A stretch of 64,000 nucleotides of DNA from an uncultured Gammaproteobacteria bacterium (GCA_963774415.1 CAVZEU010000005.1:45742-109741), one strand, 5' to 3'. Positions 3,512-61,012 are shown, counted from the first letter of the stretch. The notes: generated from the sequence alone by a model not told the origin. Numbers and translations: made by a program.

Positions 3512-3524
3512 AGGGAATACCGCC

Positions 3525-3983: not shown

Positions 3984-4006
3984 TACAAATCAAGGTGAGT
4001 GAGATT

Positions 4007-6334: not shown

Positions 6335-6343
6335 TTCGCGCCG

Positions 6344-21728: not shown

Positions 21729-21745
21729 CGGCCCGTGAAGCCGGA

Positions 21746-23122: not shown

Positions 23123-23137
23123 GACATTCTCCGGCAA

Positions 23138-25000: not shown

Positions 25001-25043
25001 TTTCGTTTCCCTAATGGCCCTTAACGTACTGGTTTTCGCAAGA

Positions 25044-27311: not shown

Positions 27312-27483
27312 GATTGAGCTCCCCATAAAAAGTGCAGTACCAATACGCCGTTATGCCGCGAGCCCGGAGCCGGGCGGGCCGAAGTCCGCTCGCGGGCAAG
27401 GCTGAATTTGTGTTATTTAACAACCCCATTGACTGCTTCTCTGGCTGGCAGTCTCTTGCGCGTGCAATAGGTCATTTTCCAAT

Positions 27484-28704: not shown

Positions 28705-29262
28705 TCACTCCTGGCGGGTTTTTGCCGCCGCTTTGGCCGCGTTCTTCTGTGCCGGCTTTGCCGCCGTTTTCCTCGCTACCCGCTTGCGTGTCTTTGCGGT
28801 CCTGGTCGCGGTACTTGCAGTGAGCGCGCTCACCCTTTGCGACAGGGATTCAACACGATCGGACAGCTTGCTCACCTCCTCGGCGGTCGGCACGCCGAGA
28901 CGGCCCAGCACCCGCGCAACGCGATCTTCGAAGATGTTCTCGAGCTTGTCCCAATTGTCGGTGGCCTGCTGACGCACCGCCCCGACCCTGGAGTCCACGT
29001 CGCCCTTGATGTCACCCACGGCCGATTCAGCCGCATTACGGGTTTTCTTTTCCAGCTTCTTGCCCTCCGAGACCAGCTTTTCGAACAGTTTGTTGCCCTG
29101 CTCGATCAGCTTGCCGCTCTCGGCCTGGGCGACGGATACGGCACCGAGGCCGGCGAGCCAGATTTCACGCGCGGAATCCAGTACCGGCGCGGCAAACCCG
29201 GGTGCGTCGCGCCTGGCCTGTGTCTTTCCCGAAGGCTTCTTTTCCGAAGTTTTCTCTGTCAT
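28705..29262 (-). CDS. Phasin / PHA granule-associated protein (PhaF-like, with short basic AKP-type tail)
   Basis: 185 aa. EIWLAGLGAVSVAQAESGKLIEQGNKLFEKLVSEGKKLEKK and VLGRLGVPTAEEVSKLSDRVESL match the PHA_granule_1 family. C-terminus is Lys/Ala-rich (KTRKRVARKTAAKPAQKNAAKAAAKTRQE), like the histone-H1-like tail of PhaF. Confidence 0.8.
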   Translation of the reverse strand: MTEKTSEKKPSGKTQARRDAPGFAAPVLDSAREIWLAGLGAVSVAQAESGKLIEQGNKLFEKLVSEGKKLEKKTRNAAESAVGDIKGDVDSRVGAVRQQATDNWDKLENIFEDRVARVLGRLGVPTAEEVSKLSDRVESLSQRVSALTASTATRTAKTRKRVARKTAAKPAQKNAAKAAAKTRQE

Positions 29263-35043: not shown

Positions 35044-36165
35044 CTACCCTGCGCTCTTCCGTACGGCCTTCGCGAGTTGTTTCAACACGCGTTGAGCCGT
35101 GTGGTGATGTGAGGTCAGTTTGCCGCCGTATATGCTGATGACGTTTTCCAGTTTCCGCGCGTGGTGCAAACGCGTTTCCCGGCTGCGGTCGAATAGGCGC
35201 CTGGCGCTGACCGGCAGCACGCGCAAGCCGGCAAAACTGTCTATAACCTGTTCCCGCCTGACCGGATCGGCGAAGTAGGCGTTGCGGGTGTCGAGCAGGT
35301 ACTCGATCTCCGCTTCCAGCGGCCTCACGTTTGCCGGGTCACCGTGATAAGGGGTCTCGGTCGTTCCGACCATGGTATGTCCCTTCCACGGCATCACGAA
35401 CACCGCCCGCCGGTCTGCGGGAGCCTCGATATAGTAGATCCCGCGCCTGAGCGCACCGGGGATCACGATATGCGTGCCTTGTACCAGGTCAATATCCAAA
35501 ACCGGCAGTGCCGGCCTGAACTTCTCCAGCACCAGGTTGACCCAGGGACCGCTCGCGTTGACGACGGTTCTCGTTTCCAGTTCATGCCCGCCATCGGCGG
35601 CACGGTAGAAAATTGTGCAACAGCGCCTGCTGCATTCGGCACCCCGGAAGGTGGCGCCGTAACGCACTCGCGCCCCCAGGCCCTCCGCCTGTTGCACGAG
35701 CCTCGTGGTCAGGCGCAGGTCATCCGTCTGCGCGTCCCAGTAGCGAAATACCCGCTTCAGGCCCTGGGTCTTGAGGCCGTCCAGTTGCGGCCAGTCACAG
35801 CGCTCGACGTGTTTGAAATCCTTGCCACCCAGCAGCCGGTAAAGGTTCAGGCCGAGCGCGATCATCCAGGTTTTCCGGTGCGTGTGCTCGTATACAGGTA
35901 TATGGAACGGCACGAGTCTGACCAGGTCGGATTGTTCCCTGAGCAGGCGGCGGCGCTCGACCAGGCATTCGCGCACCAGCCGGATTTGGCCGCTTTCGAG
36001 GTAACGCAATCCGCCGTGTATCAGTTTCGAAGACTTGCTCGAAGTGCCCTGCCCCGGTCCGCTGTATTGCTCCAGCAACAGGACTCGCCAACCGCGTTGC
36101 GCCGCGTCCCTGGCAAGGCTGGCGCCATGGATCCCCGCGCCGATGACGACGAGGTCAAAGTCCAC
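35044..36165 (-). CDS. FAD-dependent oxidoreductase, glycerol-3-phosphate dehydrogenase/oxidase-like (short form)
   Basis: DFDLVVIGAGIHGASLARDAAQRGWRVLLLE dinucleotide fold plus GTSSKSSKLIHGGLRYLE, characteristic of GlpD/GlpO. About 373 aa, so it lacks the usual C-terminal domain. GTG 36165 overlaps the GDPD stop by 11 nt; the ORF-track start is 36210. Confidence 0.8.
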   Translation of the reverse strand: MDFDLVVIGAGIHGASLARDAAQRGWRVLLLEQYSGPGQGTSSKSSKLIHGGLRYLESGQIRLVRECLVERRRLLREQSDLVRLVPFHIPVYEHTHRKTWMIALGLNLYRLLGGKDFKHVERCDWPQLDGLKTQGLKRVFRYWDAQTDDLRLTTRLVQQAEGLGARVRYGATFRGAECSRRCCTIFYRAADGGHELETRTVVNASGPWVNLVLEKFRPALPVLDIDLVQGTHIVIPGALRRGIYYIEAPADRRAVFVMPWKGHTMVGTTETPYHGDPANVRPLEAEIEYLLDTRNAYFADPVRREQVIDSFAGLRVLPVSARRLFDRSRETRLHHARKLENVISIYGGKLTSHHHTAQRVLKQLAKAVRKSAG

Positions 36166-36943
36166 GCCGGTTCGCCCGCCGTTGCAGAACCGGGTGCTGC
36201 AACAGACCACCGATGTCGGCTGTCTCGATGAGATCGACGCCCAGTGCCGCCCAGTCGAGCGCCGCCTCGGGATCGACGATATCGTACAGCATCCACTGCC
36301 AGTTCCCCGGCCACGGCGCCCGGCCGGCCGGCAGTTTAAGGTGGTTGCAAATGAGAAAATCGGGATGCAGCTGCTCGGCCAGGGTTCGGCTGGCGTCGTC
36401 GTAACTCTCCAGCACCCAACCCGTGCGGATGCCGGCGCAATGCCGCCGGCACCAGCGAAGTGCTTCCCGGTTGAAGGAAATCAACACGCAATCTGTTCGC
36501 TGCAATAACAGGGGCGCCAACTCCTCCATGACCCTTGCCAGACCCCAGTGATCGATACTTTCCTGCTTCAGCTCCACCATGCAAGCTGCGCCGGGAAAGG
36601 AAGACAGCCTGCGCAAAACACCCTTCAGCGTCGCCACTGCCGTCGGCAAAAACCGGTCGCCGAAACGGGCGGGTTCGTGAACGGATATGCCGATGCCATC
36701 GCTTTCGAGCCCAAATACCGATTGATCCCGGCCCGCGGTCCGCCTGAAGTTGTCGTCATGCAACAGGACAAAGCCGCCGTCACGGCACAACTGGATGTCG
36801 AACTCGAGCCAGGGAGCACCCAGGTCCAGGGCGGCTTCGAGCGAGACCCAGGTGTTCTCCGGGTAGCATCTCAGGTAACCGCGGTGGCCTACCAATTGCG
36901 GAATCGGTGGGCTTATCTTGGCGCGGGAGACCGGCGGCATCAT
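36155..36943 (-). CDS. Glycerophosphodiester phosphodiesterase (GDPD/UgpQ-like)
   Basis: ATG 36943 overlaps the mprF stop as ATGA; the ORF track extends to 37051. LVGHRGYLRCYPENTWVSLEAALDLGAPWLEFDIQLCRDGGFVLLHDDN is the GDPD catalytic N-terminus (HR..PENT, E.D). Confidence 0.85.
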   Translation of the reverse strand: MMPPVSRAKISPPIPQLVGHRGYLRCYPENTWVSLEAALDLGAPWLEFDIQLCRDGGFVLLHDDNFRRTAGRDQSVFGLESDGIGISVHEPARFGDRFLPTAVATLKGVLRRLSSFPGAACMVELKQESIDHWGLARVMEELAPLLLQRTDCVLISFNREALRWCRRHCAGIRTGWVLESYDDASRTLAEQLHPDFLICNHLKLPAGRAPWPGNWQWMLYDIVDPEAALDWAALGVDLIETADIGGLLQHPVLQRRANRRGL

Positions 36944-39558
36944 TTCTCCAACAGTTTGCCGTAGCCGCCCGATATCAGCCGGGCAGTATCCAGTAGCGCT
37001 CGCGGCAGGCTCATTATTCCCTGCGGGCAGGCAATGTAGCGCGGCCGCCACCGAGGATTGAATTTTTCCTTGTAGGTACGCAAACCCTCGAAGTTATAAA
37101 AGCCCTCTCCATGACTGAAAATCAAGTTGCCGAGCTTGTGCCAAAGCGGCGCCAGTGCGTGCTGGTCCAGGCCCGAAAGAGGTGCCATGCCGAGGTCAAA
37201 CCACGCGTACCCGCCGGCTTTCGCCCATAACATCAATTCGACGAAAAGAAAGTCCATGATCCCGTTGGGTGCGTTCCTGTTGAACCGCATCAGGTCCACG
37301 GACAGCTCGCCGCCGCGCGGCGCCTGCCACAAGTTCGCAAAGGCCACGATGGCGCCATCCAGGCGTACGACCGCGCAATCGAATTGGCTGACGTAGCGCG
37401 CGGAGAACGAACCCAGGGAAAAGCCCTTTTCGCCAGCCCCTTTCTCATCCAGCCACGCATCGGAGACCGCACCCATTTTCGCCGCGATGTCAACGACGTC
37501 CTGCGCCGCCACGACTTCGAACAGGGCGCCCTCTTTCAGTGCCTTGTTCCGTGCGTAGCGAAATTTTGCATTCCTGTTGCCTTCCAAACCAAACTCATCC
37601 AGGTCCACCCGTGCGTCTTCACCGATTTTTGCCAGGCTCAACCCCATATCCAGGTAGAGCGGGAGCGTCTCGGCCGAGACCTTGTAAAATACCCCGCGCC
37701 CGTCGTAACGGTCCACCATTTCCCTGAAGGACCAGACCAATTGATCCCATTCGGATTCGGGCCCGACCGGATCTCCCAGGGCAATCCAGCTTCTGCCGGT
37801 TTGCCGATACATGATGAAACCCTCTCGGCTGGGTGAGAAATGAAATTGCTTGTCCCCGGTCAACGCCGCATTGGCGGACGCGTCCTTGCAATCGCGCACG
37901 ATGTTCCGGACCCGCTCGGTTTGCCCCTCGGGCGCCAAAGCCGGCAACGGCTTGCGGCCGGCATGGAAAATCTTCCAGAGCGCCACGCTCATGGCGGTGA
38001 TGCCGGCGACCAGGCTTGCCCGCAACATCCGCGGCGCGTCGGCATGCAAAGCGAATTGCCACCAAAGATCGTTGGAGTAGCTCACTTGTCGAAAACTGAC
38101 GAGGCCGACCCAGAATACGAAGCCGAGCGCCAATACGATGGACGCGACCCAGCCCGTCGTAAACTGTTGCGAAGCGACCGAGCCGCGGCGATAGAATTCA
38201 TCTTGCGACACCCGCAGAATCAGGAAGACGATGGACAGGGTCGCGGCCTCTTCAAAATCCAGCCCTTTGAGCAAGGAAACGACGACACCGCCGGCGAGCA
38301 CCAGCAAAGCGGCAAAGTAGGCGCCGCGCAAGCGCCTGGCCAGACCTCGGGCCAACACCAGAAGGCCGACCCCCAGGACACTTCCTGCAAGATGCGACAG
38401 TTCCAGCACCGGCAACGGAATTCCCCGGGCAATGAAATTCAGGCGGCTTACGACCGCCGGGGTCGCGCCTGAAACCAGCAACACGACGCCGGCAAGGAAC
38501 ACGGCCACGCTGACGACCTGCGGTACGATGGCAGAGAGCCATCCTCCGACTTTTCCGCTCGAGGAAACGAGCACGGAGCGATGCTGCTTGATTTCGTTGA
38601 TGGTCAGGAGCAACAGGGCGAAACACAGCGGCAAGACATAATAGATCACCCGGTAGACGAGCACGCTGCCCAGCAGCACGGTTCGGTCCACCCCGGGCAG
38701 ACCCATCAGCATAATGGCTTCGAAAACCCCGACCCCGCCCGGAATGCTGCTGACCAGGCCTGCAGACATGGCTACGAGGTAAATCCCGAGGAAGGGAAAG
38801 AAACCGAACGGCAGTTCCGGTCCGATCAGCACGTAAAGCGTCGCCGCGGATAACATCAAGTCGATGACGGACAGGCAGACCTGTGCCAGGCCGATGGCTG
38901 GCCGCGGGAAAGACAGCATCCATTTGCCGACGGTGATTGGCTGGCTCACGGAAACCGCAAGTAACAAGTAAACCGCGGGTATGGCGAGCAAAAACAGGCC
39001 AGTTGAATGTAACGCGAACTCTGAAAGCCCCAAGGCCGGGGCTGTGGCAACAGGCAAAACCAACAGCGCAGCTCCGAGCAGCAAGGCTGCGCCCAGGACA
39101 AAAGTCGTCGATACGAAGACGATGACCTTGGCTATCTCGAAACCCGACAGGCCCTGCAGGGAATACATGCGATAGCGAATAGACCCGCCCGATAGTGCTG
39201 CGAAACCGACGTTCTGTCCCACGGCAAACGCCATGAAAGCCGTCTGTGCGCAACGGGCGTAGCCGAGCTCGTGGCCAATGTAGCGCATGGCCAGCGTGTC
39301 ATAACCGGTCAAGACGACGTAACTGCCCACGGTAAAGAGGCCCGCGGCCAGCAACGCGGCCCACGGGATCGAACGCATTTGTATGGCGATGTCCTGCAGT
39401 TGCAGGCTTTTGAGCTCATGGTGTAAAAACCAAAGGGACGCGCCCAGGATGAGGAGGCTGACAGTTGCTCCCGCAATGCCGCGGGCCCGGCCGCCGAACC
39501 TGGCTCGCAAACGCGGCGTTGTCCTCGTAGCCGCAACGGGTTCCCGGGTTTTTGCCAT
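36940..39558 (-). CDS. mprF: Bifunctional aminoacyl-phosphatidylglycerol synthase/flippase MprF
   Basis: 872 aa. About 14 TM helices in the N-terminal flippase part and a C-terminal LPG-synthase (DUF2156) domain (FHFSPSREGFIMYRQTGRSWIALGDPVG ... GLRTYKEKFNPRWRPRYIA). Confidence 0.9.
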   Translation of the reverse strand: MAKTREPVAATRTTPRLRARFGGRARGIAGATVSLLILGASLWFLHHELKSLQLQDIAIQMRSIPWAALLAAGLFTVGSYVVLTGYDTLAMRYIGHELGYARCAQTAFMAFAVGQNVGFAALSGGSIRYRMYSLQGLSGFEIAKVIVFVSTTFVLGAALLLGAALLVLPVATAPALGLSEFALHSTGLFLLAIPAVYLLLAVSVSQPITVGKWMLSFPRPAIGLAQVCLSVIDLMLSAATLYVLIGPELPFGFFPFLGIYLVAMSAGLVSSIPGGVGVFEAIMLMGLPGVDRTVLLGSVLVYRVIYYVLPLCFALLLLTINEIKQHRSVLVSSSGKVGGWLSAIVPQVVSVAVFLAGVVLLVSGATPAVVSRLNFIARGIPLPVLELSHLAGSVLGVGLLVLARGLARRLRGAYFAALLVLAGGVVVSLLKGLDFEEAATLSIVFLILRVSQDEFYRRGSVASQQFTTGWVASIVLALGFVFWVGLVSFRQVSYSNDLWWQFALHADAPRMLRASLVAGITAMSVALWKIFHAGRKPLPALAPEGQTERVRNIVRDCKDASANAALTGDKQFHFSPSREGFIMYRQTGRSWIALGDPVGPESEWDQLVWSFREMVDRYDGRGVFYKVSAETLPLYLDMGLSLAKIGEDARVDLDEFGLEGNRNAKFRYARNKALKEGALFEVVAAQDVVDIAAKMGAVSDAWLDEKGAGEKGFSLGSFSARYVSQFDCAVVRLDGAIVAFANLWQAPRGGELSVDLMRFNRNAPNGIMDFLFVELMLWAKAGGYAWFDLGMAPLSGLDQHALAPLWHKLGNLIFSHGEGFYNFEGLRTYKEKFNPRWRPRYIACPQGIMSLPRALLDTARLISGGYGKLLEK

Positions 39559-42847: not shown

Positions 42848-42878
42848 AAAAAAAGGGCGCCTGACCAGCAGGCGCCCC
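42848..42878 (-). terminator. Rho-independent terminator of the second DUF1302/DUF1329 operon
   Basis: Minus strand GGGCGCCTG-ctggt-CAGGCGCCC (9-bp GC stem) followed directly by TTTTTTTG. Lies 26 nt after the DUF1329 stop at 42904. Confidence 0.85.
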
Positions 42879-42903
42879 GTCTGAGTCCCTCAATGCCCGC
42901 CGG

Positions 42904-44223
42904 TCAGCGGCCCGCCTTGCGCAGGTTCTGCACCGTAAACAGCTTGGGCTGGTTGACGTCGTCCGTAATCTGGCTCTTGAACTGCAGCGTCGTGCAGTGA
43001 TTGGCCTGGATGTCGATCACCACGGCGAAGTCATCCAGCGCAACGCCCTTGCCCTTGTTCACCGGCAAGTGGCCCTTGTCCGAGTACGCCTTGCCGATCG
43101 GGAACCACTTCCACATGTCACCCTTGCGGTCGTAAGTCACCAGCGAGGCCATGGTCATGGTCTGCGAATCGAGGTTGATGACGCGCTTGCCGATCGGGTG
43201 GTTCGGATCCTTGGGTGTACCGATCAGCGTGTAGGTCTTGCGCAGCTGGTAAGTCACCTTCGGGAAGCAACTGCCCTGGCCCTCGACGTCGACGAAATGG
43301 TAGCCGTCCGGATCGTCCTTGGGTTCATCGGAGAGGTCCATGTCGTCGTGATAGTAGAAAGGCAGCAGCAGGTTACGCGTTCCGCCGTATTTCCAGTTGT
43401 AGTCTGTGACGCGGCCGTTGTAACCCTCGAAGTCCTCGATCATCAGGTCGCTGCCGAGGAAGGCGTCGGTGATCTGCCCGGCCGCAAGACGGCGCACACG
43501 CCGCTGGAAGCCGACATAGAGCCAGGCGTCGTCGCGCTTGGTGTCGTCCTGGTAGCGGTGGATAAGAATCTGGGTGTTGGCCAGATCGAACGGCTCTTTG
43601 ACGATACCGTAGATACCCCGGTAAATCTCGCCCGGGTTGTCCGCATAGGCCGGCTTGGGGTCGAAGGTCACGCGGTGGACATAGTTCAGAAAATGCCATT
43701 CGAACTTCAACCGGCGTTCGATCTTGCCCGTCTTGACGTTCCTGAATGTCCACCAGAACGGGTAGATCGTCTCGCTGTCGCCCGAGTTGAAGCCGTACTG
43801 GTAGTCCCAGACCAGCTTCTGCCCGGCCAGCGGGTCGTCCTTGCTCGGTTCCTGCGGGAAGGCGCGTCCGGCAACGAAGTTCTTGAGCGTACCGTCCGGG
43901 TTGATTGCGACGTCGGCCGCGTGGTCACGGGTCGCCTGCACGTAATCGGGCGTCAGCGGCATGTCCGTGGTCGGCGCGGTCCTGATCGTTACCCAGCCAT
44001 CCTTGACGAACTTGTACAGGGCCTCGTCGAGAATCGCCTTGTATTTCTCGACGTTGTTCTGGTCGATGACGTCACCGGGCGTATAGCCCTCCGCGGTCGG
44101 CGTCCAGTCCTTGTAGGGATAGAACGAATTATTGATGTCCGCCTCCGTAAAGGGCTCAGCGGCCGCGGTCTGAGCAAGCCCGATCAGGCCGGTGATCAAT
44201 AGTATTAATTTGCCGTGTTTCAT
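42904..44223 (-). CDS. DUF1329-family (LolA-like) periplasmic protein, module 2
   Basis: ATG 44223 with AAGGAGG 6 nt upstream, giving MKHGKLILLITGLIGLAQTAAA signal peptide; the ORF track extends to 44364 inside the upstream gene. About 439 aa. KRVINLDSQTMTMASLVTYDRKGDMWKW parallels KRTYYLDEDSYQILLTDHYDGRLQLWRV in copy 1. Confidence 0.85.
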   Translation of the reverse strand: MKHGKLILLITGLIGLAQTAAAEPFTEADINNSFYPYKDWTPTAEGYTPGDVIDQNNVEKYKAILDEALYKFVKDGWVTIRTAPTTDMPLTPDYVQATRDHAADVAINPDGTLKNFVAGRAFPQEPSKDDPLAGQKLVWDYQYGFNSGDSETIYPFWWTFRNVKTGKIERRLKFEWHFLNYVHRVTFDPKPAYADNPGEIYRGIYGIVKEPFDLANTQILIHRYQDDTKRDDAWLYVGFQRRVRRLAAGQITDAFLGSDLMIEDFEGYNGRVTDYNWKYGGTRNLLLPFYYHDDMDLSDEPKDDPDGYHFVDVEGQGSCFPKVTYQLRKTYTLIGTPKDPNHPIGKRVINLDSQTMTMASLVTYDRKGDMWKWFPIGKAYSDKGHLPVNKGKGVALDDFAVVIDIQANHCTTLQFKSQITDDVNQPKLFTVQNLRKAGR

Positions 44224-44237
44224 GTTGGCCTCCTTGT

Positions 44238-46259
44238 TTAGAACCGATACCGCAGTGTCAGTTGATATTCGTCTTCGTTGATTGCCATGCCGATCGGACC
44301 GGCACGGAACCGCCCGAGTGGCTCGTATCCGCTCAGGCCCAGGCTGCTGTAGGGGCTGAAGCACGCCGGCGAGCCGGCAGCGGCGAGCGGTGGTGCACAG
44401 GTATAAGGTGGAAAGATATTGGCGCCGCGATCATCGTCGAACGCCCTGGCGCCGGTGCCGAACTTGAAATTCAGCGCTGCCGTCAGACGCCAGTTGTTGT
44501 TGATCTTCCAGTCCACCGACGGCGAAACCGCGCCTGCGTGGGCGCCAAAATCATACGCTGACAGGATCTGCGGCGTAATCGTGTCGCTGCGGTAATTGCC
44601 CTGGAACAGGAAGGTCGCGATGTAGTTGTTCTTCCAGTCCACCATGCCGACCTTGGACAGGGTCGGCATACCCTGCGCGTTCACGGTCTGCAGTTCGTGA
44701 TCCATCAGGTGCTGTCCGAAAACCTGCAGCGAAAGCAGGAACGCGCGGTCCTTGTTCAAAAACGGAATGAACGTCGGCCGGTCGATACCGATGACCCAAC
44801 GGATGACGTCCGACTTCGAGTACAGCCTTTGCCGGAGCGTATTCGGAAATTCTTCGCCGGAAGTGTGAGAGACCTCGACGCGGATCGCGGATTTCATCGG
44901 TTCGACGTAGAAGTCCGCGGAAGCACCGACCATCGTCAGGCGCGGGAAAGCGATGTCAAAGGCGATGTTGTAGGGATAGAACTGAGACTCCACGGGGGGC
45001 GTGAACGGGTTGTCCGCGGGGATACCACCCCTGAGCGAAGGCATTTGCGAAGTGTAGCGCAGGTAGTTCAGTGAGAAACCGACACCATGCAGCACGCCTT
45101 CGACACGGAAACCGACGTCCTTGCCATGATTCGTATCCGGCAGGTCTGCCTGGCGGATACCGATCGAATGCGCCGGAAAATCGACCGCCAGGCCGGTATC
45201 CGGGAAATTCCAGACCGTACAGCCATTGTCCCAGCAGTTATTCATGGCGCGGAAGAAATTACCGGCACCGAGAATGGCGTAGGGAACTCCGCCCTGGCCG
45301 AGGATATTGGGACGGAATTTTTCAAATTTCCAGATGAACTGGAAGTTCAGGTCTTCGAACGGCCCGGTCGCCCCGGAGCGGAACTCGGTATTGAGGATAC
45401 CCATCGGGATACGGATGTCTTCCAGCTCGTCATAGATGTTTTGACGGGAAAAGTTGACCGGGTTGATGACGTCCAGCACCCGGAACAGGTCGGTCCGGCC
45501 CCAAACCACCTGTTGCCGGCCAATCCGGAATCCGAGTTCACGGCCGCTGTCGAACGGGACCGTCGCAGTCAGGTAGAGCTCGCGTATGAAATCCAGCCGG
45601 TCGTTGAAATCTGGGTAACGCAGGTTGTTAAGGCTGTCGTCCATGTAACCGTCGATGCAACCGCGCGGATCGATGTTGCACGGCCGTTTCGGATAGGCCA
45701 TGACGATGCCGCCTTTCTGGAAATGATGGACGTCTTCCCCGAGCAGGCCCATCCCTTCGTTGGGGTTGTCGGTGCCGATATAACCACCCGGCACACCCGG
45801 CAGCGGTATGGCCCCGGTTGCGGTCGGGGGCGGGAAGACACCGGCATAAGAAGGATTGGTCGACGGCGGAAACGGCGGTGTGTTCGGGTTACCGGTTGCC
45901 AGTATCCCGAAGAATGCCGGGTTGCCGGGGGCCGCGTAACTGACCGAGCGGCCGGCGTTCTTGCCGAATTCGTCGTCGTTAAGGTCATAGACGGCGTCAT
46001 AGGTGCCACGGAACGTGGCGTGGACCGACAAGTCCGTGAACATGCCCGTGGACTGGAACGCCCGGTCCAATTCCAACTGGACCGTCGAGCGTGACTTTGT
46101 CAGCCCGACCCCGTGATCGCGGACAAAGGTTGCATTTTCGATGAAGCCACGGACCTCTGTATCTTCTGCCTGCGCCTGCGCGATGAACAGTAAGGGAGCG
46201 ACAAAACAGATGAGGACAAACCGCCCTGCAGTGTATAGAACTGTGCTCTTGTAATTCAC
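44238..46259 (-). CDS. DUF1302-family predicted outer-membrane beta-barrel protein, module 2
   Basis: 673 aa. GTG start 2 nt after the RND stop with GAGGAA upstream. Signal peptide (FVLICFVAPLLFIAQAQA). RIGRQQVVWGRTDLFRVLDVINPVN parallels copy 1. C-terminal LTLRYRF. Confidence 0.85.
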   Translation of the reverse strand: MNYKSTVLYTAGRFVLICFVAPLLFIAQAQAEDTEVRGFIENATFVRDHGVGLTKSRSTVQLELDRAFQSTGMFTDLSVHATFRGTYDAVYDLNDDEFGKNAGRSVSYAAPGNPAFFGILATGNPNTPPFPPSTNPSYAGVFPPPTATGAIPLPGVPGGYIGTDNPNEGMGLLGEDVHHFQKGGIVMAYPKRPCNIDPRGCIDGYMDDSLNNLRYPDFNDRLDFIRELYLTATVPFDSGRELGFRIGRQQVVWGRTDLFRVLDVINPVNFSRQNIYDELEDIRIPMGILNTEFRSGATGPFEDLNFQFIWKFEKFRPNILGQGGVPYAILGAGNFFRAMNNCWDNGCTVWNFPDTGLAVDFPAHSIGIRQADLPDTNHGKDVGFRVEGVLHGVGFSLNYLRYTSQMPSLRGGIPADNPFTPPVESQFYPYNIAFDIAFPRLTMVGASADFYVEPMKSAIRVEVSHTSGEEFPNTLRQRLYSKSDVIRWVIGIDRPTFIPFLNKDRAFLLSLQVFGQHLMDHELQTVNAQGMPTLSKVGMVDWKNNYIATFLFQGNYRSDTITPQILSAYDFGAHAGAVSPSVDWKINNNWRLTAALNFKFGTGARAFDDDRGANIFPPYTCAPPLAAAGSPACFSPYSSLGLSGYEPLGRFRAGPIGMAINEDEYQLTLRYRF

Positions 46260-46261
46260 TT

Positions 46262-48622
46262 CTATTCCTCCTGTTGGTCTTGTCTTGTAATAAACGCGGG
46301 TTCGAATTTTCTGACCCAGGCCGGCACCAGGAACATCGAAGCCAGCGCGTTGAGGGCCAGCATGACGATCAATAGTAAAGCCGCGTCAGCCTGGAATTTC
46401 AGATCGGAAACAAACACCCACATCATTACGCCGCCAATCAGCGTGGCAGCGGTAAAGCCGATGGCACGGCCGGTCGTTGCCAATGCCGTCTTGATGGCCT
46501 CATTGAACGCCAAATCGCTGCGGGCTTTACATTCCGTGCGTATGCGGTCCATCAGATAGATCGAGTAGTCGATACCCACGCCGATCCCCACCGCGATAAT
46601 CGGCACCGTGTTGACGTTGATCCCGATCCCGGTGAGACCCATGTAGGCGTACGTCAGAACGGTCGCGAAAGACATCGCGACCAACATGATCAGCCCCGCG
46701 TGGAATGACGAATAAAACGCGGCAACTGAAAGAAAAATAAGCAGAAATACCGCAGGTATGATAATCAGGTTGGTATGAAATGCGGCCTCGTTGATCGCGG
46801 CGTTGACGCCAATCGTGCCGCCCGCCAGTTTCAGTTCGAATCCCTCGACCGTGGCGCCGACCGTGTCTCTCCAGTGCTTCACCATTTCGATCGCGCGGCG
46901 TATGGTCCCGCCCTGGTGGTCCTTGTAATAGAACACCATGTTGGCGTTTTGCTCGTCGGTGTCGAGGAATTCGAGCAATGCTCCCTGCACCGGGCTGGAC
47001 ATCATGTACAAAAACATAAGACCGCCTACCAGACTCGGATCGTCCGGCACACTGAACCATCTGGGGTCATTATAGTGCGTGATGCGGTTGACCGCCCGGA
47101 TCAGGTCCGGCAGCCCCTTGGTGCCGCCGAGCATCGGGTCCAGCAGCATGTAGGCCTGCAGGTCGGCCAATGCCTTGATCACCTCGGGCCGCTTGAGACC
47201 GCCTTTCTTGGCCGTGTGAGCGATCACGTATAGCTCTTCGGAGCCCGGGAACGATTCATTGATGACCTTGGAGGACACGTTGTAGTCATGGTCCTCGTAC
47301 AGCAACGGTGAGCCCGGTTCGGTCTCGCCGATCGTCACCCTGGAACTGGCGACGAGCGCCAACACGAACAGCACCGAGCAGACGGCAAGAACGACCGTGG
47401 GCGCGCGCGGGCGGGTGACTTTGTCGGCAACGAACTTGAACATCCTGTCGATGGAACCGGTATGCCGCGGCTTGTCGGCCGGTGTAGGCAGCAACTGCAG
47501 GATACTCGGAACCGTGATAATGACGGTGAAAATGACCGACAGCGCCCAGAAGCACGCGTAAACGGCGAGCTTGTCATTGATCGGCACCGACCCGACCGAG
47601 ATCAGCAAGAGGCCGATCGCGTCGGAAATGACGCCCAGGGAGCCGGGCCTGAACAAATTCGAAAACGCAAGGTGAGCGGCAAATTTTCCATCGTGGCCGG
47701 CGGCGATTTCCTGGTAGTAGCGCTCGACCATCTGGATACCATGAGACATGGCCCGCGCGGATATCAGGAACGGCACCACCAACATCAGCGGATCCAGGTT
47801 GTAACCGAGGTACGACAGCGTACCCAGACCCCAGATCGAGGTCAGCAGGATGCCGATGACCGGCAGCACGATCCCGTAAAGGCGCCGGAAATGGATGATC
47901 AGCAGCCCCAGCATGATGACAACGGTCAGCAGGAAAATCGTGATGATCTGGTTGGCGTAACTGGTGACCCATCCGACCAGCATAGGCTGGCCCGTTGCGT
48001 AAATCTTGGTATCCGGCGTTGTCTCTTTCTTGCGCAGGGCCTGCACCTGGTCAAATACTTTCTGGTAGTCGAGCGCGCCTTCGTTCAATGTGCCCCTTAC
48101 CAGCGCAGATTTCAGGTCGGGTGAAACCAGCAGGCCGAAGACACGCGGGTCCGCCAGCACATCGTTCTTGATCTGTTCGAGTTCGGTGTCGGTGTACCCG
48201 CCCTTCAGGGGATCGTAGAAGGGAGAGGACTTCACGGTGCCTTCACCGCTCAACCAGACCTTGCGCACGTTACGGTGCGTCAGGCTCGTGACGAGGTTGT
48301 GGTTGATGCCGCCGAGTGCATCGACCGCCATCGTAATGCGGTGAATCCGGTCCAGCGTCTCGTTGGTGAAGATCGTGCCCTTGTCGACCTTGACCGCGAT
48401 CATGATATTGTTGGCGCCGCCGAAGGTGTCCCTGATCTCATTGTGCAGCTTGATATAGGGGTGGTCCTGGGGCAACAGGTCGGCAAAGTCCGAGACCATG
48501 CGCACCATCGGCACACGGACCGCAAATACCGCCGTTATCAACGCGATGATGAGCAAGGTACTCCTGGGATGTCTCCAGACAAGTTCCACGAAGCGGTTCA
48601 GGATGCGGCTGAAGCTAATCAT
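46262..48622 (-). CDS. RND-superfamily (MMPL/HpnN-like) inner-membrane transporter, module 2
   Basis: 786 aa with 12 TM in two bundles. FGGANNIMIAV, GIDYSIYLMDRI and LKFQADAALLLIV parallel copy 1. The start overlaps the BNR stop by 8 nt (ATGATTAG). Confidence 0.85.
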   Translation of the reverse strand: MISFSRILNRFVELVWRHPRSTLLIIALITAVFAVRVPMVRMVSDFADLLPQDHPYIKLHNEIRDTFGGANNIMIAVKVDKGTIFTNETLDRIHRITMAVDALGGINHNLVTSLTHRNVRKVWLSGEGTVKSSPFYDPLKGGYTDTELEQIKNDVLADPRVFGLLVSPDLKSALVRGTLNEGALDYQKVFDQVQALRKKETTPDTKIYATGQPMLVGWVTSYANQIITIFLLTVVIMLGLLIIHFRRLYGIVLPVIGILLTSIWGLGTLSYLGYNLDPLMLVVPFLISARAMSHGIQMVERYYQEIAAGHDGKFAAHLAFSNLFRPGSLGVISDAIGLLLISVGSVPINDKLAVYACFWALSVIFTVIITVPSILQLLPTPADKPRHTGSIDRMFKFVADKVTRPRAPTVVLAVCSVLFVLALVASSRVTIGETEPGSPLLYEDHDYNVSSKVINESFPGSEELYVIAHTAKKGGLKRPEVIKALADLQAYMLLDPMLGGTKGLPDLIRAVNRITHYNDPRWFSVPDDPSLVGGLMFLYMMSSPVQGALLEFLDTDEQNANMVFYYKDHQGGTIRRAIEMVKHWRDTVGATVEGFELKLAGGTIGVNAAINEAAFHTNLIIIPAVFLLIFLSVAAFYSSFHAGLIMLVAMSFATVLTYAYMGLTGIGINVNTVPIIAVGIGVGIDYSIYLMDRIRTECKARSDLAFNEAIKTALATTGRAIGFTAATLIGGVMMWVFVSDLKFQADAALLLIVMLALNALASMFLVPAWVRKFEPAFITRQDQQEE

Positions 48623-49661
48623 TGTTCGTCTCCGCGTTCTTCTCCGCGCTTGGCAGCGGTTTCGAGTCCGGGATCGTTACCGGCAACAGCGACCCGCCGC
48701 CGCCGGCGGCGATAAAATGGCTGCGGTCCAGCCCGATAACCCCGCGCAGATAGGTCCGCGACATCACCGTCTGGCCCAACGGCCCCCAGGTACCGTCTTC
48801 GAGCCGCGAAACCAGGATAATGGTGTTGTCACCGACGGCGACGAGCGTGTCGCCGAAACCGGTGATCCCGTAGAGCGGCGTGGTGATGCCGCTCGGCACC
48901 TCGTTCCACGTCTGCGCCGCGTCGGTGGTTTTCCAGATCGTACCGCTGAGGCCCACCACCCAACCGGTGGAGGCGTCCTTGAAATAGGCGCTTTGCGGGT
49001 AAAAGCTGTTCGGCAGTTCGGTGGCTCGCTGCCAGCTTACGCCCCCATCCTCGGAAACCAGCACGGTGCCGAATTCACCGGTCGCGAAAGCGTGCTGCTC
49101 ATCGAGAAATTGAATCGTTGTCAGGTACAGGTCGTCATCCAGCGACCAGCTGTCCCAGCTCGCTCCCTTGTCCAGGGAATGCAGGATCGTGCTGAAGCCG
49201 CCGACCACCCACAATACACCGTCCGGGTTGCAGGTCAGCGCCTGCGGTTCGGTACCCTCGGGCAAGGGCTGGCGGCTCCACTTGCCACCTTCCTGCAAAG
49301 ACCAGATGCCGTCGGTCTTGTCGATCGCGTAGAAGGCGCCATCCGCACAGGCGGTCACGTCGACCAGGTACGGCCGGCCAGCGAGCGTCGTGCTGCGCCA
49401 CTGTTTGCCGCCGTCCGCGGATTGCACGACCGAGCCCATACCGCCGACGACCACGACCTGGTCCTTGAAGCGCGCGATCGCCTGGAACAGGTCCGAACGA
49501 TGCGTGGGCTTGGCCTTTTCCGCGGCCACGCCCGACAGATCGAGCGGCGCCTCGCAGCCGGTAAGCAGGAAAACGAAAGCAATCAGAGCGGCTGCCGATG
49601 ATCCGGCACGAAAAAATGCTGGGGCCCGACGGGCCCGCGGTGCTCTGGTCAAACTACCCAT
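48615..49661 (-). CDS. Ycf48-like / BNR-repeat beta-propeller lipoprotein, module 2
   Basis: 348 aa. Lipobox (FVFLLTG|C). Asp-box-like repeats: SADGGKQWR, SLDKGASWD, SEDGGVSWQ, TTDAAQTWN. First gene of the operon. Confidence 0.8.
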   Translation of the reverse strand: MGSLTRAPRARRAPAFFRAGSSAAALIAFVFLLTGCEAPLDLSGVAAEKAKPTHRSDLFQAIARFKDQVVVVGGMGSVVQSADGGKQWRSTTLAGRPYLVDVTACADGAFYAIDKTDGIWSLQEGGKWSRQPLPEGTEPQALTCNPDGVLWVVGGFSTILHSLDKGASWDSWSLDDDLYLTTIQFLDEQHAFATGEFGTVLVSEDGGVSWQRATELPNSFYPQSAYFKDASTGWVVGLSGTIWKTTDAAQTWNEVPSGITTPLYGITGFGDTLVAVGDNTIILVSRLEDGTWGPLGQTVMSRTYLRGVIGLDRSHFIAAGGGGSLLPVTIPDSKPLPSAEKNAETNND

Positions 49662-49731: not shown

Positions 49732-49778
49732 ATTATAGTTTAAGCTTAAATTATAACAAATAGTAATTTAATTGACAT
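49732..49778 (-). promoter_or_regulatory. Candidate sigma70 promoter(s) with embedded 12-bp palindrome, upstream of module-2 operon
   Basis: On the minus strand there are two exact TATAAT hexamers (plus-strand 49750-55 and 49732-37). They flank the perfect palindrome TTTAAGCTTAAA (49739-50). ATGTCA (4/6 to TTGACA) lies 17 nt upstream of the distal -10. The segment sits in a 22 percent GC stretch (13 G/C in 49721-49780). Confidence 0.4.
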
Positions 49779-49905: not shown

Positions 49906-51549
49906 CTACTGGATGCGCTCGAGCAGCGCGGTGAAGCGCTTATCCGAACGCAGCGCGTCGAGGTCCGAGTCCGTTTCCAGCCACGCCCGGTCGCCCCAGC
50001 CGCGGTCGACGGCCTGGCCCAGCAAATCGAGGGCCCGATCGAGGTCCCCGCGCAACGTATAGAAGCAGGCAACGTTGTAGAGGACCAGTGGCTCATCCGC
50101 CCCGCGCTTGAGCGCCTCCTCGGCCATTTCCTGGCCGCGCTCGAATTCGCCCACATTGCTGTACTGGTTGGCGGCGATACAGAGCGTGCGGGTATCGTCC
50201 GGGTTCATCTTCAGGTGACGTTCCATCAATTCGATGGAAGCCAGCCGCGCCTTCATTTCCTCGTGCCGCCGGCCCAGCGAGGAATACGCCTGGGCCAGGA
50301 ACGCCACCGGCTGCGGATCGGCCGGGTTCACCTCGGCCGCCTTGCGGTACATGGCGACCGCGCGCTCGAACTGGCCGTGCGAAGCATACGCCAGACCTGA
50401 GTAATAATAGGCTTCGAACAGGTTGGGGTTGAGTTCGATGGCCCGCTCGAATTCGCGCTCCGCATCCGGGTACTGCTCATTGATGAACAGCGCCAGCCCG
50501 CGCGAGGCGCGCGCCTCGGCGGAATCCGGGTCCATCGCAACCGCCTTTTCACTGTATTCCAGCGCCCTGGCCGCGATCTCCCTGCTGCCGTCGGCGTAAC
50601 GATACATGTGGGAATAGGCGTCGGCGATCCCGGCGAAAGCCAGCGCGTATTTGGCGTCCAGGTCGATCGCCTTCTTGTACATGGCGATCGCGTGTTCATA
50701 GTCCCGCTTGGTCATCGTGTACATATAACTGCGGCCACGCAGGTAGTAATCGTAGGCGCCGGCGTCCGCGGTGGCGACGTTCTGGATGGAACGCCGCTCC
50801 TTCGGTGTCAGGGTCATTTCCAAGGCATCGACGATGCTTTGTGCGATATCGTCCTGGATCGCGAATACGTCCTTCATCTCGCGGTCATAGGTTTCCGACC
50901 ACAGGTGCGAGTCGGTGGTGGCGTCGATCAACTGGGCGGTGATCCTGACGCGCCCGCCGGCGCGCCGTATGCTGCCTTCGAGCACCGTCTCGACGCCCAG
51001 TTCGCGGGCGACGTTCGGAATGCTGGCCTCCTTGCCTTTGAAAAGGAACGATGAAGTGCGCGATGCCACCCGCAACTGCGGCAACTTGACCAGCAGGTTC
51101 AGGATTTCCTCGGACATACCGTCGCTGAAGTACTCGTTCTCCTTGTCATCGCTCATATTGACGAACGGCAGGACGGCGATGGACTTGCGCCGGTCACCGC
51201 TGGCGGCCGCGGGCGCCGCGGTCTCGGCAACAACCGCCGCCGTGGGGCCGGCGGCCGGCTCGGGCTCATTTTCCGGGGGACTGGTTTTGGGCTTCTCGGG
51301 AACGATGTCGAAGGCCCAGGCCAGCGTCGCCGCGATAAAGAAGCCGAGCACCACCAGTGCGGTAACCAGCGTGACCGTCCAGGTCGGCAGGTTCAGGTTG
51401 GGCAAAACGGTGGAAGCCACCTCGATGACGACCCAGCCCGCAATGGCGTAGAGGACAACGACCCGGACCACGCGGCGCCGCTTGAGTTCGGACCAAAAAC
51501 TGGCCGCCGCTATTTTTTCCGGCGACTCGTCCATCGGCATCAGCTCCAA
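49906..51549 (-). CDS. Membrane-anchored TPR-repeat protein with TolB-N-like periplasmic domain
   Basis: 547 aa. SFWSELKRRRVVRVVVLYAIAGWVVIEV anchor and IAVLPFVNMSDDKENEYFSDGMSEEI domain, then several TPR units (AYYYSGLAYASHGQFERAVAMYRKAAEVNP and similar). Confidence 0.8.
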   Translation of the reverse strand: MELMPMDESPEKIAAASFWSELKRRRVVRVVVLYAIAGWVVIEVASTVLPNLNLPTWTVTLVTALVVLGFFIAATLAWAFDIVPEKPKTSPPENEPEPAAGPTAAVVAETAAPAAASGDRRKSIAVLPFVNMSDDKENEYFSDGMSEEILNLLVKLPQLRVASRTSSFLFKGKEASIPNVARELGVETVLEGSIRRAGGRVRITAQLIDATTDSHLWSETYDREMKDVFAIQDDIAQSIVDALEMTLTPKERRSIQNVATADAGAYDYYLRGRSYMYTMTKRDYEHAIAMYKKAIDLDAKYALAFAGIADAYSHMYRYADGSREIAARALEYSEKAVAMDPDSAEARASRGLALFINEQYPDAEREFERAIELNPNLFEAYYYSGLAYASHGQFERAVAMYRKAAEVNPADPQPVAFLAQAYSSLGRRHEEMKARLASIELMERHLKMNPDDTRTLCIAANQYSNVGEFERGQEMAEEALKRGADEPLVLYNVACFYTLRGDLDRALDLLGQAVDRGWGDRAWLETDSDLDALRSDKRFTALLERIQ

Positions 51550-59266: not shown

Positions 59267-61012
59267 TTGGGACGCTGTGAATTGCCGCGGATACCTTACA
59301 GGACTATTGCGGGTGTTGTGCTGGGTATGTCGTGCCTCGTTGCCGCCGCCCGGGCCGATGTGACATTTACCGGCCTCAATAGCGAGCAGGAGAAGAACGT
59401 CCGCGCGCTCACGGCCATTGCAGCGGCTGCCTGCGACTCCGCGCCCTGGCGCGTCAGGCGCCTGTTCCGTGACGCGGACGGGCAAATCCGGAAGGCCCTG
59501 GAAGCCCTGGGTTACTACGATGTCGAGGTTTCCAAATCGCTGAGCTGGAAGCAGCCCTGCTGGCACGCGGAATTCAACCTGACGGTGGGTGCGCCGGTGC
59601 AGTTGCAAAAGGTCGACATCCGGATCGAGGGGGCGGCGGCCGAGGACAAGTATTTCCTCGGCCTGATTCGCGCCGGCAGACCGAAGCAGGGCGATGTCCT
59701 CGATCACGGCCGCTACGAGCACTACAAGAATACGCTGATGAAGGCCGCCATGGCGCGGGGTTACTTCGACGCCGTTTTCCGGCGCCACCAGATCGTCGTC
59801 GACCGCGACGCCGGGCGGGCCAACCTGACGCTCGTCTTCGACAGCGGGCCGCGCTACGAGATCGGTGACATTCGTTTCACCCATGGCATCATCCGCGACC
59901 GCGTACTGAAGGGTTACAACGACATCAAGCCCGGGGAGCCCTACAACGAAAACCGGGTCAACGACCTGCTGGCCGCGTTGCGCGGCAGCGGCTACTTTGA
60001 ATCGGTGCTCCTCAGCACCAAGCCGCTGGACCGCGTGCACAAGCGGGTGCCGCTCACGATCGAGCTGACACCCAGCAAGCGCCACGTCTACACGTTCGGT
60101 GCCGGCTACGCTTCCGACCTCGGCCCGGTGTTGAAGCTGGGCTTCACCAATCGCCGGCTCAACGACCGCGGCCACCAGTTCGAGAGCCGCTTGTCCGCCT
60201 CCAGGGTGCATTCCGAACTGACGGCGGCCTACCGTTGGCCGCGCAACGACCCGCGTAAGGAATGGTACACCGTGGCCGCCGGCGCCCAGCATGAGAACAC
60301 CGACACCAGCAACAGCGACGCCTACAAGCTCGGCCTGAGCCGTACCCAGAGCCTTTCCAGTTCATGGCTGCAGACACGGTACCTGGACTATGCGCTCGAA
60401 GACTTCTCCGTCGCCGGCCAGCGGGGGTCCAGCCGCCTGCTCCTGTTCGGCATCGATTGGGAATTCGTCGAAGGGCGTGAGCTGAGCCGGGTCCGGCACG
60501 GCCGCCGCTTCGATTTCGATATCCGCGGCGCCAGCGACGCCGTGGGTTCGGACACCAGCTTTCTGCAACTGCGTACCAGTGCCAAGTGGGTACACTCCCT
60601 CGGACCGCGCACGCGCCTGCTGAGCCATGCCCGCGCCGGCTACACGATCAAGCAGAAGTTGCAGTCCCTGCCCGCTTCGGTGCGTTTTTTCACCGGCGGC
60701 GACCGCAGCGTCAGGGGCTACGCCTACAATTCCCTGGGCCCGGTGGACGCAAACGGCAAGGTCGTCGGCGGCTCGCGCTTACTCGAGGGCGGTCTCGAAC
60801 TGGAGCAGATGGTTTCCGCAGACTGGGCCGTAGCCGCCTTTGCCGACAGCGGCAGCGCTTTTAGCGGCGCCAACCCCGATTTTTCGACCGGCGTGGGTCT
60901 GGGGCTGCGCTGGTACTCGCCGATCGGCCCGGTGCGGCTGGATTTCGCCCATCCGCTCGACGGCTCGGGCCGCGATATCCGTCTCCACATCATCTTCGGG
61001 CCGGACCTGTGA
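59267..61012 (+). CDS. tamA: Translocation and assembly module outer-membrane subunit TamA (Omp85/BamA family)
   Basis: 581 aa with POTRA-like N-terminal repeats and an Omp85 barrel (RFFTGGDRSVRGY, GVGLGLRWYSPIGPVRLDFA). Followed by a tamB-like gene with a GTGA overlap. Start uncertain (TTG 59267 or TTG 59282). Confidence 0.8.
   Translation: MGRCELPRIPYRTIAGVVLGMSCLVAAARADVTFTGLNSEQEKNVRALTAIAAAACDSAPWRVRRLFRDADGQIRKALEALGYYDVEVSKSLSWKQPCWHAEFNLTVGAPVQLQKVDIRIEGAAAEDKYFLGLIRAGRPKQGDVLDHGRYEHYKNTLMKAAMARGYFDAVFRRHQIVVDRDAGRANLTLVFDSGPRYEIGDIRFTHGIIRDRVLKGYNDIKPGEPYNENRVNDLLAALRGSGYFESVLLSTKPLDRVHKRVPLTIELTPSKRHVYTFGAGYASDLGPVLKLGFTNRRLNDRGHQFESRLSASRVHSELTAAYRWPRNDPRKEWYTVAAGAQHENTDTSNSDAYKLGLSRTQSLSSSWLQTRYLDYALEDFSVAGQRGSSRLLLFGIDWEFVEGRELSRVRHGRRFDFDIRGASDAVGSDTSFLQLRTSAKWVHSLGPRTRLLSHARAGYTIKQKLQSLPASVRFFTGGDRSVRGYAYNSLGPVDANGKVVGGSRLLEGGLELEQMVSADWAVAAFADSGSAFSGANPDFSTGVGLGLRWYSPIGPVRLDFAHPLDGSGRDIRLHIIFGPDL

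Follow-up and report, generated by a model that had tools for sequence, protein, structure and literature searches.

The 64,000-nt stretch of DNA analysed here (the window; 62% G+C), from an uncultured gammaproteobacterium, contains two copies of a four-gene envelope module encoding a DUF1302 protein, a DUF1329 protein, a Ycf48-like BNR protein and a transporter of the RND superfamily. This study deals with the copy found at 42904–49661 on the (-) strand (module 2), whose genes form one operon in the order Ycf48-like BNR lipoprotein, MMPL/HAE3-like RND transporter, DUF1302 and DUF1329, while the other copy (module 1, 18227–25054) lies 21 kb away on the same strand and displays the order DUF1302, DUF1329, BNR, RND (Table 1). 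A first-pass annotation, made from the sequence alone, had described this permuted recurrence of the four families, and it is confirmed by the open reading frames (ORFs) and by Pfam scores above cut-offs for both modules. The family assignment thus holds: all four module 2 proteins exceed the Pfam gathering cut-offs, with 59.8 bits for BNR2 against PSII_BNR (cut-off 27, 3.4e-16), 80.1 bits for RND2 against MMPL (cut-off 20.5, 1.9e-22), 152.1 bits for DUF1302_2 against PF06980 (cut-off 23.2, 3.8e-44) and 222 bits for DUF1329_2 against PF07044 (cut-off 23.1, 1.9e-65), the latter with an additional LolA_like sub-hit, and the module 1 proteins match the same four families. A phmmer scan of all window ORFs detected no third copy of the module.

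The minimal junctions previously noted in module 2 were found again when the sequence was read directly. BNR2 and RND2 overlap by 8 nt (ATGATTAG), the start of RND2 overlapping the BNR2 stop codon; RND2 and DUF1302_2 are separated by 2 nt (TAG-aa-GTG), with AGGAGGA just upstream; and DUF1329_2 follows DUF1302_2 after a 14-nt spacer (acAAGGAGGccaac) that contains AAGGAGG. The start of DUF1329_2 was taken as the ATG after this AAGGAGG, the longest possible ORF (42904–44364) beginning within the preceding gene. The strong terminator claimed for the end of the operon is also present, with a 10-bp stem that is closed mostly by G-C pairs (Table 1).

Sequence and structure comparisons were used to characterise the four proteins. 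BNR2 matches Ycf48 chains of the PDB with E = 3e-20 by sequence and scores 59.8 bits, under the cut-off of 326, with the Ycf48 equivalog model NF010237; judged by these scores, its likeness to Ycf48/HCF136 is one of fold and repeats only and it does not qualify as a photosystem II assembly factor. The best NCBIfam match of RND2 is TIGR00921 (HAE3), with 134.6 bits, under the cut-off of 351.9, and its C-terminal half matches MmpL3 in the PDB (~1e-7). A crude hydropathy analysis fits a 1+5 / 1+5 layout, with 12 transmembrane segments and two loops of ~185–190 amino acids (aa). RND2 scores 22.5 bits against ACR_tran, below the cut-off of 28, and the module 2 operon encodes no HlyD/MFP or OEP family protein, which sets it apart from the HAE1 tripartite systems (AcrAB-TolC). 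DUF1302_2 spans profile positions 81–531 of 541 with a score far under that of DUF1302_1 (561.9 bits) and, on profile evidence, is a divergent DUF1302 subfamily. Its AlphaFold2 model, run on an 80-sequence alignment, is a beta-barrel of ~18–20 long strands with three large, well-ordered non-barrel inserts (pLDDT 84.7, pTM 0.85), and the best PDB folds retrieved with Foldseek are general porins, AlgE and OccAB (TM ~0.5, probability 1.0), with no solved relative detected by sequence profile. The same porin-like fold outcome has been published for a Pseudomonas aeruginosa DUF1302 protein (PMC13499233). The DUF1329_2 model (pLDDT 88.1) superposes, over its C-terminal ~300 residues, on the LolA-like structures 9tp6 (LolA3), 3bk5 and 4z48 (TMt 0.81–0.85, Foldseek), 4z48 being the crystal structure of a DUF1329 protein.

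In order to place the two modules among their relatives, we used a module-2-type profile to fetch 80 loci from genomes (type 2) and a module-1-type profile to fetch 80 from metagenomes (type 1). Type 2 was defined ad hoc on its 80 loci and is not a curated family; its marks are four proteins nearer to module 2 than to module 1, a BNR lipoprotein carrying C-E-A-P-L and a BNR-RND block upstream of, or divergent from, DUF1302-DUF1329, and module 2 displays all three. Database searches returned more than 1,700 homologues of DUF1302_2, the best 120 of which are all at least 56% identical, and more than 4,100 homologues of DUF1302_1. The best type-2 match is a metagenome-assembled genome (MAG) of the Wenzhouxiangellaceae (84%), and further type-2 loci come from Lysobacterales, Arenicellales, Pseudomonadales, Candidatus Thiodiazotropha, Chromatiaceae, Woeseiaceae, Steroidobacteraceae, several Alphaproteobacteria and one Hydrogenophaga. 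At each of the 80 + 80 loci, the best score of all four proteins was with the module whose type had been used for fetching. Mean identity in all four families is 0.40–0.65 within a type and 0.19–0.27 between types, and the split between the types was recovered in 20/20 neighbour-joining (NJ) bootstrap replicates for each family. All four components thus sit in separate clades, a possibility that the annotation had put forward for checking, and the same deep split in all four families indicates that the four genes diverged together as a unit.

The types also differ in gene order and in the anchoring of the propeller protein. Wherever a type-1 locus had enough flank, the order was DUF1302, DUF1329, BNR, RND without exception. 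The 58 complete type-2 loci display BNR, RND, DUF1302, DUF1329 in 43 cases, plus 2 variants thereof; in 11 the two pairs are divergent, with RND and BNR reading away from DUF1302 and DUF1329, and in 2 the type-1 order is seen. Nine of the 11 divergent loci group together in the DUF1302 tree, and L080, one of the two loci in type-1 order, is the type-2 member nearest the base. This pattern is consistent with, without being proof of, a type-1 order in the ancestor and a few later block rearrangements. As the annotation had pointed out for the two modules, BNR stays adjacent to RND and DUF1302 to DUF1329, and this is the case in every complete locus (58 of type 2 and ~36 of type 1), the adjacency surviving repeated swapping or divergent turning of the two blocks. 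The intra-pair spacers of type 2 have estimated medians of 13 and 19 nt; between RND and DUF1302 the distance is greater and varies (median 79 nt, interquartile range 11–187). All of these values are approximate since starts were extrapolated from alignments. Concomitantly, the lipoprotein nature of BNR in module 2, as opposed to the plain signal peptide of module 1 that had also been noted, proved to be a clade-wide trait: in all 65 type-2 BNR proteins whose N-terminus is intact, a hydrophobic stretch is followed by [G/A]-Cys-Glu-Ala-Pro-Leu, whereas type-1 BNR proteins have ordinary signal peptides and are not lipoproteins. Multiple divergent copies per genome are common. Two type-2 modules occur in one genome at L020 and L066 (OZ242974.1), L021 and L068 (NZ_MARB01) and L004 and L039 (JAJRRA01), our locus numbers being given first; in Thiodiazotropha with two type-2 modules, one of them lies beside phenol/meta-cleavage genes, and Elongatibacter sediminis has a type-1 DUF1302 together with a type-2 DUF1329.

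Module 2 thus probably represents an old, separate branch (type 2) of a four-component envelope system consisting of DUF1302, DUF1329, a Ycf48-like BNR protein and an HAE3-like RND transporter, and it is complete within a single operon. The four-gene unit would have diverged long ago, and the two 2-gene blocks would have been rearranged relative to each other later. Two other accounts of its origin have to be weighed. That all four Pfam families recur on one strand within 21 kb could be taken to mean that module 2 arose by recent duplication or is module 1 repeated through faulty assembly or binning, but pairwise BLASTP gave identities of only 22–28%: 28% over the full length for RND1 and RND2, 27% for the BNR proteins, 22% over ~215 aligned aa for DUF1302 and 28% over 93 aligned aa for DUF1329. 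The modules are therefore far from identical, although the diagnostic blocks said to be shared by the paralogs are indeed present in the alignments (RIGRQQVVWGRTDLF / RVGRQVVSWGESTFI and GIDYSIYLMDRI / GVDYGIYIYNRL). The modules also differ in gene order, in signal-peptide type and in their neighbours, an independent public assembly (Logan ERR11594398) contains the identical operon with the same flanks, and the same operon is found at 73–84% identity in the closest relatives (Wenzhouxiangellaceae/Lysobacterales MAGs). A recent duplicate or an assembly artefact, which had next to no probability in our assessment, is excluded, and the low identities together with the deep split in all four families bear out the old duplication or independent acquisition that had been put forward. 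Acquisition of module 2 as a recently transferred island functionally unrelated to the host is improbable too. Type-2 modules can be mobile, one being carried by a conjugative IncP plasmid of Pseudomonas veronii, the clade covers Gamma-, Alpha- and Betaproteobacteria, and the G+C content of module 2 (0.58–0.60) is slightly under that of its flanks. Against this, G+C at third codon positions (GC3, 0.74–0.85) agrees with host genes and module 1, the closest homologues come from the same family-level lineage with identities resembling those of the Cox-like large-subunit orthologue of the same loci (80–84%), and no integrase, transposase or tRNA gene was seen beside the operon among the surveyed ORFs. 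The matching GC3 and the presence of the operon in the closest relatives argue for a module 2 that has long been resident in the lineage rather than recently transferred.

In order to compare gene neighbourhoods, the ORFs flanking type-2 modules were clustered, the commonest clusters were annotated and markers were counted on loci of at least 12 kb. One context consists of a Cox-like molybdenum (Mo) hydroxylase, with FAD, 2Fe-2S and Mo subunits and CoxD/E/G-like accessories. The other comprises a multicomponent phenol hydroxylase and meta-cleavage genes (DmpF/G, aldehyde dehydrogenase, hydratases) together with an XylR/DmpR-type sigma-54 activator, and in this context a DSBA-like and GST-like pair lies directly downstream of DUF1329. 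At least one marker (phenol hydroxylase, meta-cleavage, XylR-type regulator, DSBA/GST or Cox-like Mo-hydroxylase genes) was found at 43 of the 59 long type-2 loci versus 1 of the 35 long type-1 loci, and ~30 type-2 loci show the association with multicomponent phenol hydroxylase, meta-cleavage genes and XylR/DmpR-type regulators. Conversely, a VolA/Pla-1 phospholipase gene precedes DUF1302 at 41/80 type-1 loci and at 0/80 type-2 loci. The only type-2 module returned by a plasmid search is the P. veronii one mentioned above (strain T1, NZ_CP142043.1, L162/L163), from an aniline-contaminated site; it lies beside dmpR and dmpKLMNOP, keeps the order BNR-RND-DUF1302-DUF1329 and spans the plasmid origin, and its RND and DUF1302 are each represented by two ORFs, which may be pseudogenes or sequencing errors. 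As a separate observation, type-2 DUF1302 proteins have four invariant cysteines (C194, C201, C342 and C347 in the window numbering) in the large non-barrel inserts, and a DSBA-like thioredoxin-fold gene is present 3' of DUF1329 in 24 type-2 loci.

These data lead us to propose a working model for module 2. The proton-driven RND protein would act at the inner membrane together with the membrane-anchored beta-propeller lipoprotein, while the LolA-like DUF1329 protein would ferry a hydrophobic cargo across the periplasm and dock on the DUF1302 barrel, through which the cargo would pass the outer membrane; the system would then consist of two sub-assemblies bridged by a carrier. The two sub-complexes that the annotation had suggested from the gene pairs are, in our data, indicated by synteny, and they had already been proposed on the basis of AlphaFold co-folding (PMC10866462) and of the split loci of Pseudomonas (bioRxiv 10.1101/072470). 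Judging from the neighbourhoods, the cargo of type 2 is most likely a small hydrophobic or aromatic compound and that of type 1, module 1 included, probably a lipid or fatty ester; with different cargo classes, the two modules of this genome would probably not be redundant.

We tentatively favour outward transport, i.e. efflux or tolerance as for the AmeABCD cassette, because export is the only activity known for RND proteins, lipids are what the nearest characterised relatives of RND2 export, and the AmeABCD phenotype is a loss of tolerance. Uptake is less probable but stays a serious rival because of the catabolic-operon context and the growth phenotypes of P. putida: the DUF1302 barrel would admit hydrophobic substrates and DUF1329 would ferry them inward to RND/BNR, for delivery to the inner membrane and the catabolic enzymes. 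Type-2 modules form part of catabolic operons that XylR/DmpR-type activators control, and type 1 is linked to a secreted phospholipase. The FadL-type uptake channels TodX and XylN are organised likewise, in catabolic operons, which also speaks for uptake. On the other side, no member of the RND superfamily is known to import, and HpnN and MmpL3, the nearest characterised relatives of RND2, export lipids. In P. putida the two pairs lie at separate loci and growth on Tween 20 and on butyl stearate requires both (bioRxiv 10.1101/2020.07.04.188060), and a role in 'substrate transport' has been proposed by Foldy (PMC10866462), both of which would suit uptake, while deletion of ameABCD in Castellaniella defragrans 65Phen lowers monoterpene tolerance and increases Nile Red accumulation (PMC6394551), which does not. 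Export of an endogenous envelope lipid or cell-wall component, in outer-membrane biogenesis or remodelling, appears rather unlikely. It was proposed by Price et al. from pleiotropic phenotypes (10.1101/072470), DUF1302 and DUF1329 have been reported in outer-membrane vesicles and nanopods (cited in 10.1101/072470), RND2 resembles HpnN/MmpL3 and DUF1329 is LolA-like; however, it leaves unexplained both the strong, clade-specific link of type 2 to phenol/meta-cleavage operons and sigma-54 activators and the two or three divergent copies in several genomes.

Several points weigh against the preferred reading of module 2. The neighbourhood contrast sets a genome collection (type 2) against a metagenome collection (type 1), with phylogenetically non-independent loci, and the trees are NJ trees on Poisson distances with 20 bootstrap replicates, not maximum-likelihood trees. 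Around module 2 in this window there are no genes of aromatic catabolism; it is flanked by a TPR membrane protein upstream and by ODP and OsmC-like genes downstream. The Cox-like operon of the window lies ~36 kb from module 2, while it adjoins the module in close relatives. The two-complex physical model draws here on synteny, and the growth phenotype of P. putida on Tween and esters looks more like uptake or processing than efflux (10.1101/2020.07.04.188060). Finally, we identified no experiments on any type-2 member, and AmeABCD and the Pseudomonas proteins could not be assigned to either type here.

As to the Cox-like operon, its proteins are under all NCBIfam equivalog cut-offs, and its large subunit is 80–84% identical to the enzyme found beside, and divergent from, the type-2 module at L009, L010, L004 and L007; since the orthologue adjoins the module in the closest relatives, a rearrangement has separated the two here. 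A bolder and rather doubtful reading is that type 2 constitutes a separate class of transporter for phenolic, aromatic or small hydrophobic compounds, co-inherited with phenol-hydroxylase/meta-cleavage operons or with one clade of Cox-like Mo hydroxylases, and built from two autonomous sub-assemblies bridged by a shuttling carrier rather than from a continuous channel. If true, this would be an RND mechanism unlike that of classical tripartite pumps, and a genome with both types would offer a natural experiment for assigning substrates to uncharacterised DUF1302 and DUF1329 proteins.

Table 1. Features of modules 1 and 2 and of associated loci in the window.
Feature	Coordinates	Strand	Details
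BNR2, Ycf48-like beta-propeller lipoprotein, 348 aa	48615–49661	-	lipobox LLTG-C36, Glu at +2
RND2, RND-superfamily inner-membrane transporter, MMPL/HAE3-like, 786 aa	46262–48622	-	Pfam MMPL, hydropathy
DUF1302_2, outer-membrane beta-barrel, 673 aa, GTG start	44238–46259	-	Pfam, AlphaFold2; signal peptide ...AQAQA-ED
DUF1329_2, periplasmic LolA-like, 439 aa, ribosome-binding site AAGGAGG	42904–44223	-	Pfam, AlphaFold2; signal peptide ...TAAA-EP
Intrinsic terminator closing the module 2 operon	42878–42854	-	GGGGCGCCTG...CAGGCGCCC then T7; stem 10 bp, 8 G-C pairs
AT-rich leader of module 2, two overlapping putative sigma-70-like promoter matches	49732–49778	-	10/12 each
DUF1302_1, canonical type, 638 aa	23138–25054	-	Pfam DUF1302 2.6e-168, full length
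DUF1329_1, 463 aa	21746–23137	-	Pfam DUF1329 2.3e-148
BNR1, Ycf48-like, plain signal peptide	20697–21728	-	Pfam; probable start ATG at 21701
RND1, RND/MMPL transporter	18227–20749	-	Pfam; probable true start ATG at 20704
VolA/Pla-1-family phospholipase, module 1 companion, 760 aa, plain signal peptide	25044–27326	-	TIGR03502 2.2e-100; Pfam Lipase_bact_N
Cox-like Mo hydroxylase operon	2630–6937	+	FAD 2630–3511; 2Fe-2S 3525–3983; Mo 3926–6334; CoxG-like 6344–6937

The 240-nt gap found 5' of BNR2 has a strongly A+T-rich core. It contains a perfect 12-nt palindrome (TTTAAGCTTAAA, 49750–49739), a second palindrome (TTAAGCTT, 49720–49713) and a 7-bp inverted repeat, GCGTATC-ctga-GATACGC (49693–49676), located 15 nt ahead of the BNR2 start codon. 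The closest relative (L002) keeps the leader palindrome and its flanking blocks, plus a weakened form of the 7-bp hairpin, and these repeats are possibly an operator or a leader structure. A sigma-54 promoter 5' of BNR2 was considered and rejected, as reading of the upstream sequence gave no GG-N10-GC match. Likewise, we discarded the upstream TPR protein (49906–51549) as a regulator or conserved partner, since no DNA-binding domain was found in it and it looks membrane-anchored and is absent from 80/80 type-2 loci, and the downstream ODP and OsmC genes as conserved partners, these not being kept beside the type-2 modules of the 80 loci.

In module 1, the N-terminus of BNR1 is a plain signal peptide (...AVAFANPGAADGG) without lipobox. 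The longest RND1 ORF overlaps BNR1 by 53 nt, while with the in-frame ATG at 20704 as start the overlap with the BNR1 stop is 8 nt (ATGACTGA), in the same style as module 2; because of this likeness, and because the alignment offset with RND2 fits, 20704 is probably the real start. The phospholipase gene overlaps the start of DUF1302_1 by 11 nt, which suggests that lipase and type-1 module form a lipase-transporter functional unit. That module 1 exports a lipoprotein lipase to the cell surface is not supported, since the window lipase has a plain signal peptide without lipobox. Directly downstream of module 1, on the same strand, lies a gene for a hybrid PAS histidine kinase with a receiver domain (975 aa, 15027–17954, (-) strand).

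Elsewhere in the window, a Sortilin/Vps10-type BNR-repeat protein of 997 aa (9553–12546, (-) strand) is unrelated to the module BNR proteins by phmmer. Other envelope or lipid genes encode an MprF-like lysyl-phosphatidylglycerol synthase (36940–39558, (-) strand) and a GDPD phosphodiesterase (36155–37051, (-) strand), and a phasin gene is found at 28705–29262 on the (-) strand. The region 59267–64000 on the (+) strand contains TamA and, after it, a long ORF, possibly TamB, that is cut off by the end of the window.

Proteins of the DUF1302 and DUF1329 families are widespread among Proteobacteria, P. aeruginosa included; their function is not agreed upon, and no structure of a DUF1302 protein has been solved (PMC13499233). 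The four-gene system itself has mostly been described, so that the added value of the present work is modest and lies in the clade-specific differences: at least two old lineages of the system differ in gene order, propeller anchoring and neighbour genes, which yields concrete substrate hypotheses, and the published two-pair architecture gains independent genomic support, without a new kind of system. The system, its multiplicity, its pair structure and its aromatic link are already published. The four-gene cluster was defined by cofitness in Shewanella, Kangiella and Pseudomonas, with P. stutzeri splitting DUF1302-DUF1329 from BNR-RND (bioRxiv 10.1101/072470). In published AlphaFold co-folding, a DUF1302-DUF1329 complex and a DUF1329-BNR-RND complex are predicted (PMC10866462), with an ipTM of 0.84 in PMC13499233. 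The four families have been reported in phenol and aromatic regulons of Betaproteobacteria, among them Azoarcus with 'distant homologs of the four genes' (PMC6449761), and DUF1302/DUF1329 genes in the phenol-hydroxylase cluster of Zoogloea oleivorans (PMC7012976). In the literature as far as it could be searched, we found no explicit account of two clades that differ in gene order, lipoprotein anchoring and lipase versus aromatic contexts. Two further candidates for relatedness were set aside: AupA/AupB of Marinobacter as DUF1302/DUF1329 proteins, since the paper calls AupA FadL-type and never mentions those families, and PahS/PahP of Cycloclasticus, PahS being of the TonB-dependent-receptor type.

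Compared with individual known components, RND2 has its best sequence matches in HpnN and MmpL3, whose 12-segment, two-loop layout its hydropathy would fit and which export hydrophobic molecules from the inner membrane; these nevertheless work without a dedicated outer-membrane barrel, LolA-like or beta-propeller partner, and RND2 is far below their equivalog cut-offs (33.5 vs 751.85 for TIGR03480, HpnN; 26.4 vs 1400 for NF052608, MmpL3). The C-terminal half of DUF1329_2 has the fold of LolA/LolB, but there is no LolCDE context and DUF1329 is about twice the size of LolA. BNR2 shares with cyanobacterial Ycf48 the fold and the lipoprotein nature, without the photosystem context.

At the level of whole systems, module 2 is of the same kind as AmeABCD, Sama_1588-1591 and PP_0765/0766 with PP_2018/2019. 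Sama_1588-1591 of Shewanella amazonensis, Psest_1122/1123 with Psest_1923/1924 of P. stutzeri, and the PP genes of P. putida encode the same four families and are genetically cofit, and the Pseudomonas loci keep DUF1302-DUF1329 and BNR-RND at separate loci, matching the way the blocks behave in our data. The Pseudomonas-seeded Pfam DUF1302 model is matched over its full length by module 1 (562 bits) and with 152 bits by module 2, and these cofit systems differ in their Tween 20/fatty ester phenotypes and in a linked LuxR-type regulator, neither of which fits the surroundings of module 2. The phenol regulon operons of AphS/AphR/AphT (COG4447/COG1033/PF07044/DUF1302; PMC6449761) and the Zoogloea cluster (PMC7012976) show the same aromatic association as the type-2 loci; those papers make no split by subfamily, gene order or lipoprotein status, and module 2 of the window is without such neighbours. 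AmeABCD, the only member with transport-related experiments (tolerance and Nile Red), has the same four components in one cassette (DUF1302, LolA-like DUF1329, COG4447/Ycf48-like, and an HAE3-type RND of ~787 aa), itself located inside a gene island for hydrophobic-substrate catabolism. It differs in that its order is A-B-C-D, with DUF1302 first as in module 1, while module 2 is C-D-A-B, and in that AmeC is described as periplasmic whereas the BNR protein of module 2 is a lipoprotein. AmeD was assigned to a new HAE3 lineage and the cassettes were called 'conserved in composition and organisation' (PMC6394551); for module 2 the composition is conserved but the cassette organisation is not, the permuted order being the majority state of the type-2 clade (43/58).

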